Origin: Chlamydiia bacterium
Lineage (GTDB): Bacteria; Chlamydiota; Chlamydiia; Chlamydiales; JAAKFQ01
DNA length: 64,000 nt
Assembly (NCBI GenBank): GCA_041688145.1
Contig: JBDNIV010000040.1
Coordinates: 1,742-65,741 of the forward strand
Reading direction: 5' to 3'
Positions 23,383 through 24,510 of this stretch are shown one piece after another. Below the pieces are notes generated by a model, which saw only the letters and a list, made by a program, of their open reading frames with translations, made no database searches and was not told the origin of the DNA. The position numbers and the translations under genes were made by a program. Within the stretch, counting starts at the first letter, position 1. The number at the start of each line of letters is the position of its first letter.

Positions 23383-24510
23383 GTGAAAAAAAAACTTACA
23401 TTTTTCCTCTTTGCAGCAGAGCCTAGTGGCGATGCCCACGGATCGACTCTGATAGAAGCTCTTAAGCATCAATATTCTGAGGCTGAGTTCATAGGAACAG
23501 GAGGACCTAAAATGCGTGAAGAAGGTCTAAATGGCCCAATTCCCATGGAGTCTTTTTGTGTGATGGGGATTGGTGATGTCCTAAAAAACTTACCCAAACT
23601 CTACGCTCTATTCAAGACCACAAAAAGGCATATCTTAGAAAAAAACCCTGACTGCGTCATTCTCATCGACTACCCTGGATTTAACCTCAGGCTAATGAAA
23701 GAGCTTACAAAGTCTGGCTTTTCAGGTAAAATCGTCCACTATATAGCACCGAGCGTTTGAGCCCACGGTAAAGGGAGAATTAAAACACTTGAGCGATTTT
23801 GCAACCTCCTTTTAGTTATCTACCCCTTTGAGCCTCCCTACTTCTCATCTATGCCCTGCATCTATGTAGGCAATCCCTTAGCCTATGGCATTGAGCACGC
23901 GCCCTTTTTTGAAGGCCGGCATCACCTTGGCCTTTTTCCAGGAAGTCGACTTTCTGAAATTGAGCATAATCTACCCATCATGCTTAGGGTAATAGAAAGT
24001 CTTCAAAGGCAACTCCCCGAGGAAATGGAAAATCTAGAGATTGCACTTTCTTTAGCCCGAAAAGAGCTTTTATCTAAAATAGAAAGCCTTATCCGTGAAA
24101 GCAGCTTAAAGATAAAGATAGTCTCTCCTGAAGAAGCGCATCGCCTAATGTACACTTCAAAAGTAGCTCTTGCTACTTCAGGAACAGTCACCCTAGAACT
24201 TGCCCTTAGAAAAACGCCAAGCGTTGTTATCTATAAAGTACCGAAGCTCTTTTTCTATATAGGCAAGTATATTGCCCGTATCAAACTGCCTTTCTACTGT
24301 ATTGTGAATATCTTACTCAAACGCGAAGCCTTTGCTGAATTCTTCGATAAAGAACTCGATGAAAAACTAATTATAGAAAGCGCAAAAAAAGCACTTGAAA
24401 AACCAAAGTCTTTTGAAAAGGACTTTGAAGAGCTCGAAGAGCTCATGGGAGGGAATGATCCCGCAAAAAAAGCAGCCCAAGAAATTGGGCTGCTTTTACA
24501 AGTAGAGTGA
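23383..24510 (+). pseudogene. lpxB: Lipid-A-disaccharide synthase interrupted by one in-frame TGA (23758-23760) at the conserved Trp; either a pseudogene or readthrough-dependent
   Basis: Tracked ORFs 23383-23760 and 23851-24510 share one frame. LpxB homology continues across the stop: ...VHYIAPSV[TGA]AHGKGRIKTLERFCNLLLVIYPFEPPYF... versus the LpxB motif PSVWAWR...LPFE. The rest of the gene is intact. Confidence 0.85.
24464..24506. repeat. Direct-repeat copy A (contains bidirectional terminator hairpin GCAGCCCA-AGAAAT-TGGGCTGC); overlaps the last 14 codons of lpxB
   Basis: CAAAAAAAGCAGCCCAAGAAATTGGGCTGCTTTTACAAGTAGA. 39 of 43 positions are identical to copy B at 25489-25532. Confidence 0.8.

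Follow-up and report, generated by a model that had tools for sequence, protein, structure and literature searches.

Introduction

The classical case of programmed UGA readthrough is the A1 protein of phage Q-beta. A UGA that arises at a tryptophan codon is also the mildest of nonsense changes; the near-cognate Trp-tRNA(CCA) inserts the original residue. In Escherichia coli K-12, readthrough of UGA by Trp-tRNA in competition with release factor 2 (RF2) amounts to about 2% at 37 °C and about 4% at 25 °C (PMC10570021). Complete reassignment of UGA to tryptophan (translation table 4) is known from the Mycoplasmatales, several insect endosymbionts, and some Patescibacteriota (PMC13092985). As regards the enzyme considered here, residue roles have been described for D98, R201, and N316 of E. 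coli LpxB, and W126 of the same protein lines a hydrophobic groove predicted to hold acyl chains (PMC5785501). In the Chlamydiota, all five Chlamydia species tested require the synthesis of lipooligosaccharide (LOS) to produce infectious progeny (PMC5402638).

We analyzed an lpxB gene (lipid-A-disaccharide synthase) interrupted by an in-frame TGA, within a 64,000-nt stretch of a chlamydial draft genome, hereafter the window. The locus resembles a strain-specific point-nonsense pseudogene, or a consensus error in a draft genome: the stop derives from a single TGG to TGA transition in a collinear, conserved gene, intact orthologs exist in near-identical strains, no recoding signal accompanies it, and gene callers split the gene. 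It differs in carrying two further private substitutions within 59 nt, and with these companions the pattern points to a clustered origin, in one multi-nucleotide mutation or one template artefact, rather than to a lone point mutation or slow decay.

An lpxB Frame with a Single In-Frame Stop

The frame at 23383-24510 on the forward strand comprises 376 codons, the sole break being the TGA at 23758-23760, and it ends in its own TGA-TAG. The features of the locus are as follows.

23383..24510, + strand: lpxB (lipid-A-disaccharide synthase) frame, 375 codons plus terminal TGA-TAG, broken once; assigned from PF02684, TIGR00215, and collinearity with 5w8s
23383..23760, + strand: N-terminal fragment ORF, 125 aa, GTG start; the expected product if RF2 terminates at the TGA
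23851..24510, + strand: C-terminal fragment ORF, 219 aa, beginning at the first ATG that follows the stop; missing from its product would be residues 126-156 and all of the N-terminal part of the N domain
23758..23760, + strand: in-frame TGA replacing the codon of the invariant Trp126; the variable base is 23760, A in the window and G in all relatives
23702..23708, + strand: two private substitutions, A at 23702 (C in relatives) and C at 23708 (G in relatives)

With the stop read as Trp, the translated frame matches the Pfam LpxB family (PF02684) in a single stretch over residues 8-347 with 290.5 bits (cut-off 22.6), and the NCBIfam lpxB equivalog TIGR00215 with 220.8 bits, against a curated cut-off of 190.25; the match is thus full-length, collinear, and above the curated cut-off. 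Alignment to E. coli LpxB (PDB 5w8s) is likewise collinear along the frame, including the 30 codons between the TGA and the next ATG. The first-pass annotation, made from the letters alone, had proposed that the ORFs at 23383-23760 and 23851-24510 share one frame and that LpxB similarity runs through the stop and the 90 nt that follow it, and both the single PF02684 stretch and the 5w8s alignment agree with this. The closest named LpxB homologs, from Parachlamydiaceae and Protochlamydia, are about 44% identical, and no close relative was found in the GTDB-representative set.

D96, R189, and N309 are present in the window lpxB and are invariant in a 121-sequence alignment (A1). They are the equivalents of E. 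coli D98, R201, and N316, conserved residues with catalytic and structural roles.

The 125-aa and 219-aa fragments are on record as two separate proteins (P0121 and P0122), both from one NCBI contig of 67,722 nt, gene callers having divided lpxB into two ORFs; they appear there in a cluster listing, whereas exact look-ups with either fragment gave no entry. Elsewhere, the window carries two genes of the Pom family (Protochlamydia outer membrane protein), an F-box protein gene, a Tyr/Trp permease gene near lpxB, and further genes of the kinds usual in environmental Chlamydiota. Apart from lpxB, the window contains no gene of the lipid A pathway.

The sequence around the stop reads ...GCACCGAGCGTT-TGA-GCCCACGGT, with local codons GTT-TGA-GCC. 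Aligned to 5w8s, the TGA occupies the position of the first W of the PSVWAW motif, that is, E. coli W126, and the corresponding column is W in 120 of 120 database homologs. The stop therefore lies on the invariant Trp, as the first-pass annotation had observed, and it stays there, with the two halves of the gene collinear, when the frame is checked against the known LpxB structure and the 120 homologs.

The same annotation had considered everything else in the gene to be intact, a description that did not hold. At 23702, 58 nt upstream of the variable base of the stop, codon 107 has changed from GCG to GAG (A107E), and at 23708, 52 nt upstream of that base, codon 109 has changed from AGA to ACA (R109T). 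Both substitutions are radical and private and lie within 59 nt of the stop. Column 107 is E in none of the 120 homologs; at column 109, 116 of them have R, the other four have K, and none has T. Instead of an uninterrupted ORF with Trp126 and a basic residue at position 109, the window thus has TGA at codon 126 and Thr at 109. As judged from its assembled sequence, the locus is a disrupted lpxB and would not be a functional member of the family.

Intact Alleles in Near-Identical Strains

Comparison with sister strains had been named beforehand as a test of the stop. A protein search recovered an uninterrupted LpxB of 375 aa (P0001), 99% identical to the window frame. Its 1,453-nt contig (L001, ENA ERZ27247432; the same as L003, IMG 3300007522) is 99.8% identical to window positions 23321-24773 and differs from them only in having C at 23702, G at 23708, and G at 23760. 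The same C, G, and G are found in a contig from a second sample (L004/L012, IMG 3300007519), which covers 21003-23850. A further contig (L013, ERZ27247445) has C at 23702 and G at 23708 and ends at 23757, before the stop codon. Contig L016, from the sample of L001, shows one difference from the window in 3,140 nt, so that, lpxB apart, the strain carrying the intact allele is nearly the same as that of the window.

Two more distant relatives polarize the changes. Contig L015 (Logan SRR24908268), at 90% nucleotide identity in lpxB, has GCG, CGA, and TGG at the three codons, and contig L014 (IMG 3300022693), at 76% nucleotide identity, has GCG, AGA, and TGG. The ancestral state GCG, AGA/CGA, TGG is thus seen at three depths of divergence, and the states of L014 and L015 imply that all three window states (GAG, ACA, and TGA) are derived and private. 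On these comparisons, then, the three changes are both derived and confined to the window's assembly. The proposed one-step change from TGG to TGA is borne out directly, TGG being present in the near-identical strains and in the two more distant relatives, and the stop itself is private to this assembly.

The triple-mutant haplotype A-C-A was not found in any other assembly covering the site. Contigs 100% identical to the window (L005/L007, ERZ27247430, and L006, SRR9199117) end at 24329 and 24093, short of the site. We also considered contig ends as a sign of polymorphism, because L013 stops at 23757, 3 nt before the variable base, which is suggestive. This argument was dropped: the end does not fall exactly at the base before the variable position, and L013 passes 23702 and 23708 with the intact bases.

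Between the window lpxB and L014, dN/dS is 0.098 (dN 0.137, dS 1.40), and a ratio of about 0.10 indicates that lpxB has long been under strong purifying selection. The window's derived state therefore stands against intact orthologs under purifying selection, which is what a recent point-mutation pseudogene presents.

Clustering of the Three Changes

Outside the 59-nt patch, the remaining 1,394 nt of L001 are identical to the window. If differences were placed at random, finding all three within 59 nt of 1,453 nt would have a probability of 0.004. Over the whole 8,434-nt stretch covered by near-identical contigs, which holds 12 variant sites in all, a scan statistic for three of the 12 sites falling within 59 nt gives p = 0.028.

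The other nine variant sites comprise four synonymous and five conservative changes (L/V, S/T, L/V, V/A, and S/F). At six sites, in 25663-28331, the window's states are common to it and other contigs, and at 21601 the window's Leu agrees with the outgroup. Those of the nine that were checked behave as ordinary polymorphisms, and no private derived differences were identified other than the three in lpxB. Together, the companions A107E and R109T and their clustering with the stop put more weight on a single local event (a multi-base mutation or an artefact), and the three changes probably arose together in one such event rather than through slow decay.

All three changes (23702, 23708, and 23760) hit G:C pairs, and two of them destroy 6-bp palindromes of the intact allele (AGCGCT and GGGCCC). 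Avoidance of restriction sites, or a base-calling error linked to methylation, was rejected as a cause because AGCGCT occurs 34 times and GGGCCC four times in the window and neither is depleted. Gene conversion or an assembly chimera found no support within the window either: neither mutated 18-mer has a second match there at up to three mismatches, and the only local repeat is the 8-nt TTTGAGCC, which is at chance level.

Decoding of UGA in the Window

The window encodes RF2, the release factor that reads UGA.

35857..36952, − strand: prfB (release factor 2; TIGR00020), with a +1 frameshift site CTT TGA C at 36886-36880

The 326-aa ORF of prfB scores 501.2 bits against TIGR00020, for which the cut-off is 370. 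Upstream of it, an ATG and 22 codons lead into GTGAGG-TAT-CTT-TGA-C (ATG...GTGAGGTATCTTTGAC), the canonical autoregulatory +1 frameshift site of RF2, and the joined product has 364 aa, with the SPF motif at 203 and GGQ at 248. TGA ends seven of the 51 ORFs of the window (14%), including one in an ATGA overlap with uvrC and lpxB itself, and 192 Trp codons are TGG as against the single in-frame TGA. The first-pass annotation had cited TGA as a genuine stop at 3488-3490, 5209-5211, and 55963-55965, and these are indeed ORF ends; its view that genome-wide recoding is unlikely now has stronger evidence in RF2 with its frameshift site, the TGA ends, and the TGG codons, which together exclude a reassignment of UGA. 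Genomes using table 4 share with the window a UGA at a conserved Trp position. They are, however, without RF2 and without genes ending in UGA, and they hold many in-frame UGAs at Trp codons, whereas in the window RF2 is present, UGA ends genes, and all other Trp codons are TGG. No tRNA-Trp gene was found in the window, whose tRNAs are Leu-caa, Arg-tcg, and Leu-gag only.

The window's other in-frame TGA, that of prfB (36883-36881, − strand), is a genuine case of programmed recoding and makes a useful comparison. That site (CUU UGA C) combines a conserved slippery CUU with a weak C at +4 and, upstream, an SD-like GAGG, and translation there shifts into the +1 frame. All of these features are absent from the lpxB site (GUU UGA G), whose continuation is in frame 0; with both halves of lpxB in the same frame, no frameshift is needed.

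Folding around and after the stop (90 nt) is not significant (z = -0.84), and Rfam searches at the gathering threshold returned only the three tRNAs in the window and no match at the stop. Selenocysteine was rejected since there is neither a SECIS-like fold nor an Rfam match, and the homologous residue is W, not Cys or Sec, in every one of the 120 homologs. Programmed readthrough was rejected because the stop is not conserved (TGG in L001/L003, L004/L012, L015, and L014, and W in all of the homologs), its +4 base is G, and no significant structure accompanies it. The absence of a downstream structure and of conservation thus excludes both mechanisms.

Among the long same-frame pairs of segments in the window, no other has homology across the stop. 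When further in-frame stops were sought as a sign of recoding or decay, the only such pairs were an acyltransferase with an M16 peptidase, two distinct genes, and one involving a stretch upstream of 38561-40735 that is non-homologous. MurJ, at the edge of the window, is cut off by the window's end rather than broken, and the approximately 51 ORFs showed no other broken gene.

Origin of the lpxB Allele

The first-pass annotation had left three options, namely a recent inactivation, insertion of Trp by readthrough, and a sequencing error. All three are kept here with revised weights, and nothing points to a programmed mechanism. The explanation that we favor, and to which we would give slightly less than an even chance, is that one recent, local, non-programmed event (A107E, R109T, and W126stop) yielded a real null allele. 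In the lineage or the DNA molecule(s) behind the window's assembly, three G:C pairs lying within 59 nt would have been changed in an lpxB that is otherwise intact and under normal selection. If the bases are real, all three could stem from one multi-nucleotide mutation, such as a patch of error-prone repair synthesis, captured in an intracellular population that is small and bottlenecked. RF2 would then read the UGA after Val125 and release a 125-residue fragment that ends inside the N-terminal Rossmann-like domain and would be unable to form the GT-B fold. Re-initiation at the ATG at 23851 would give a product that lacks residues 1-156 and, with them, the catalytic Asp96 (E. coli D98). With such truncated fragments, the allele is predicted to be null for lipid A disaccharide synthesis, save for background readthrough by the near-cognate Trp-tRNA, and any readthrough product would have its Trp restored but would still carry A107E and R109T. 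We infer a single event, its presence in the organism rather than in the library, and an allele that is deleterious and transient.

The main competitor of a real mutation is an artefact of sequencing or assembly, in which case the organism would carry the normal GCG...AGA...TGG; we regard this as a serious possibility, with a probability clearly below one half. Three changes in 59 nt are also exactly the pattern expected of a damaged or duplicated template or of a thin-coverage patch. They could have entered through a damaged molecule, through an early PCR error carried in duplicates, through an error of multiple displacement amplification (MDA) if the source is a single-cell genome, or through a patch covered by one or two poor reads that left the assembler a single path. 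The observations favoring such an origin are that the three differences are private and packed into 59 nt, with none in the flanking sequence of the closest contig; that every other assembly covering the site is intact, L013 agreeing with these at 23702 and 23708; and that all changes are at G:C pairs, including a C to A and a G to A. C to A and G to A are the classes typical of oxidative and deaminative template damage. The third change, G to C, is not a typical damage signature. In related samples, moreover, the population is of low coverage, with contigs of 1.4-5 kb that break around lpxB.

Several observations stand against an artefact. The source contig spans 67.7 kb, and the window holds no other broken gene or indel-type damage, which speaks against an assembly that is error-prone throughout or very thinly covered. 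Because singleton k-mers are dropped or out-voted during assembly, the three errors would have to ride together on the dominant reads, and a path with three errors rarely wins. Nor was a systematic cause found, there being neither motif avoidance nor a paralogous donor in the window. The biology of the gene pulls the other way. Given the need for LOS, a true null would be expected to be deleterious and short-lived rather than the majority allele of a population, and an allele that abolishes a function required for infectious progeny is unlikely to be the consensus. From a rough estimate of base rates, a real allele and an artefact stand near parity, and a real allele of either kind, null or leaky, is perhaps a shade more probable than its absence.

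In the leaky version, which we consider unlikely, the allele is real and is tolerated because a few per cent of full-length LpxB may suffice for lipooligosaccharide, making it a hypomorph. The locus has in common with background readthrough by Trp-tRNA(CCA), as seen with E. coli reporters, a UGA codon, Trp as the ancestral residue, and RF2 as the competitor, encoded in the window. Readthrough at the background level known from E. coli would restore the exact ancestral residue, and beyond the stop the gene does not differ from the intact allele. The window's stop, however, is without conservation, special context, or structure and is absent from the sister strains, so that it is not programmed and any readthrough would be incidental. 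It is conserved in no relative, lacks a stimulatory structure downstream, and is followed by a +4 G rather than by the weak C of the organism's own prfB frameshift site, while RF2 is present and autoregulated. The product would, in addition, retain both companion substitutions, one of them in a column that is basic throughout the homologs, and the A107E and R109T cluster thus weakens the case that readthrough by tRNA-Trp keeps lpxB functional.

More demanding, and in our view improbable, is the proposal that the triple mutant is the dominant allele of a natural population of an environmental chlamydia, whose lineage would either do without lipid A disaccharide synthesis or get by on the few per cent of LpxB that readthrough supplies. 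If true, the Chlamydiota would include a member that is naturally LOS-deficient or LOS-hypomorphic and perhaps independent of the infectious elementary-body stage. Lastly, programmed recoding, whether UGA meaning Trp genome-wide, selenocysteine, or a programmed frameshift or split gene giving a functional LpxB, has as its sole support the coincidence of the stop with a Trp codon and is effectively refuted by RF2 with its SPF and GGQ motifs and UGA-dependent frameshift site, by the TGA-ended ORFs and TGG codons counted above, by the lack in the window of a second long in-frame-stop pair homologous across the stop, by the missing SECIS-like fold and Rfam match at a position that is Trp in every homolog, and by the single frame that the two halves already share.

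Significance for the Lineage

The lesion is a private, non-programmed nonsense change with two companion substitutions, of an ordinary kind, in a gene whose intact form occurs in the same population. As it stands, its importance is small: it is one private lesion, or an error, in just one draft genome from an uncultured lineage of the Chlamydiota. Its value is cautionary, in that this lpxB should be annotated as disrupted or possibly erroneous, and the stop offers no basis for inferring a loss of lipid A in the lineage or a variant genetic code. Were the allele fixed in a population, it would be worthwhile to ask whether LOS is dispensable there or whether an envelope gene is expressed through readthrough, given the need for LOS in Chlamydia (PMC5402638).

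Initiation and Frameshifting Signals

21334-22581, + strand: pcnB-like poly(A) polymerase, open frame without an ATG, GTG or TTG start
35857-36952, - strand: prfB (RF2), with a programmed +1 frameshift site of canonical form at 36886-36880

The PolyA_pol head domain of the pcnB-like product is whole and begins at residue 44 of the open frame. The earliest canonical start in this frame, a GTG at 21718, lies deep within that domain, and gene callers cut the gene to 287 aa. The pcnB-like gene of L015, a relative 90% identical in lpxB, is in the same position. Translation likely begins at the ATT at 21352, which is preceded 7 nt upstream by AAAGG, with an ATC at 21337 as the alternative; the candidate ATT resembles the start codon of Escherichia coli pcnB, AUU. 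In prfB, the ATG at 36952 is followed by 22 codons and then by GTGAGG TAT CTT TGA C, and the joined RF2 product is 364 aa long, with both SPF and GGQ motifs. The TGA of prfB, the other in-frame one of the window, is genuine, and the feature is already known.

Genes Flanking lpxB and Population Micro-Diversity

24554-25405, - strand: F-box domain protein of 283 aa, between lpxB and the rpmF-yceD genes

The corresponding position in L015 and in L014, a 76%-identical relative, lacks the F-box gene, which marks this eukaryote-like effector gene as a lineage-specific insertion.

Between window positions 20020 and 29436, near-identical metagenome contigs (L004, L008-L013 and L016) reveal a micro-diversity of about 0.1% with mixed SNP combinations: for example, L016 carries the window alleles at 21601 and 22999 and the other allele at 22398, while L012 differs from the window at all three positions. 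This mixing suggests several haplotypes, recombining, across samples. At 23702 and 23708, L013 (ENA ERZ27247445 k141_913242) agrees with the intact allele; it ends at window position 23757, 3 nt short of the variable base 23760; its end may reflect chance, or a graph branch close to the Trp codon in its sample.

Other Genes of the Window

8-3490 and 3604-5211, + strand: two tandem SBP_bac_5 solute-binding proteins
12969-13886, + strand: 305-aa ORF with RNase P protein (PF00825, residues 5-136) and DTW (PF03942, residues 138-279) domains
37054-38418 and 38561-40735, - strand: adjoining pair formed by a TPS-domain protein (two-partner-secretion-type exoprotein N-terminus) and a UGP3-like gene
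53451-54320 and 54806-55645, + strand: two adjacent genes for beta-barrel proteins of the Pom family (Protochlamydia outer membrane protein)

In the first SBP_bac_5 protein (1,160 aa), roughly 700 residues at the N-terminus form an extension with no Pfam match, and the second gene overlaps uvrC through an ATGA at its end. The 305-aa ORF is an apparent RnpA-DTW fusion, uniting two tRNA-processing or tRNA-modification functions. The UGP3-like UDP-sugar pyrophosphorylase (724 aa), of a family more familiar from plants and plastids, has hexapeptide repeats at its C-terminus. Finally, the two Pom-family genes support the assignment of the organism to the environmental Chlamydiota.
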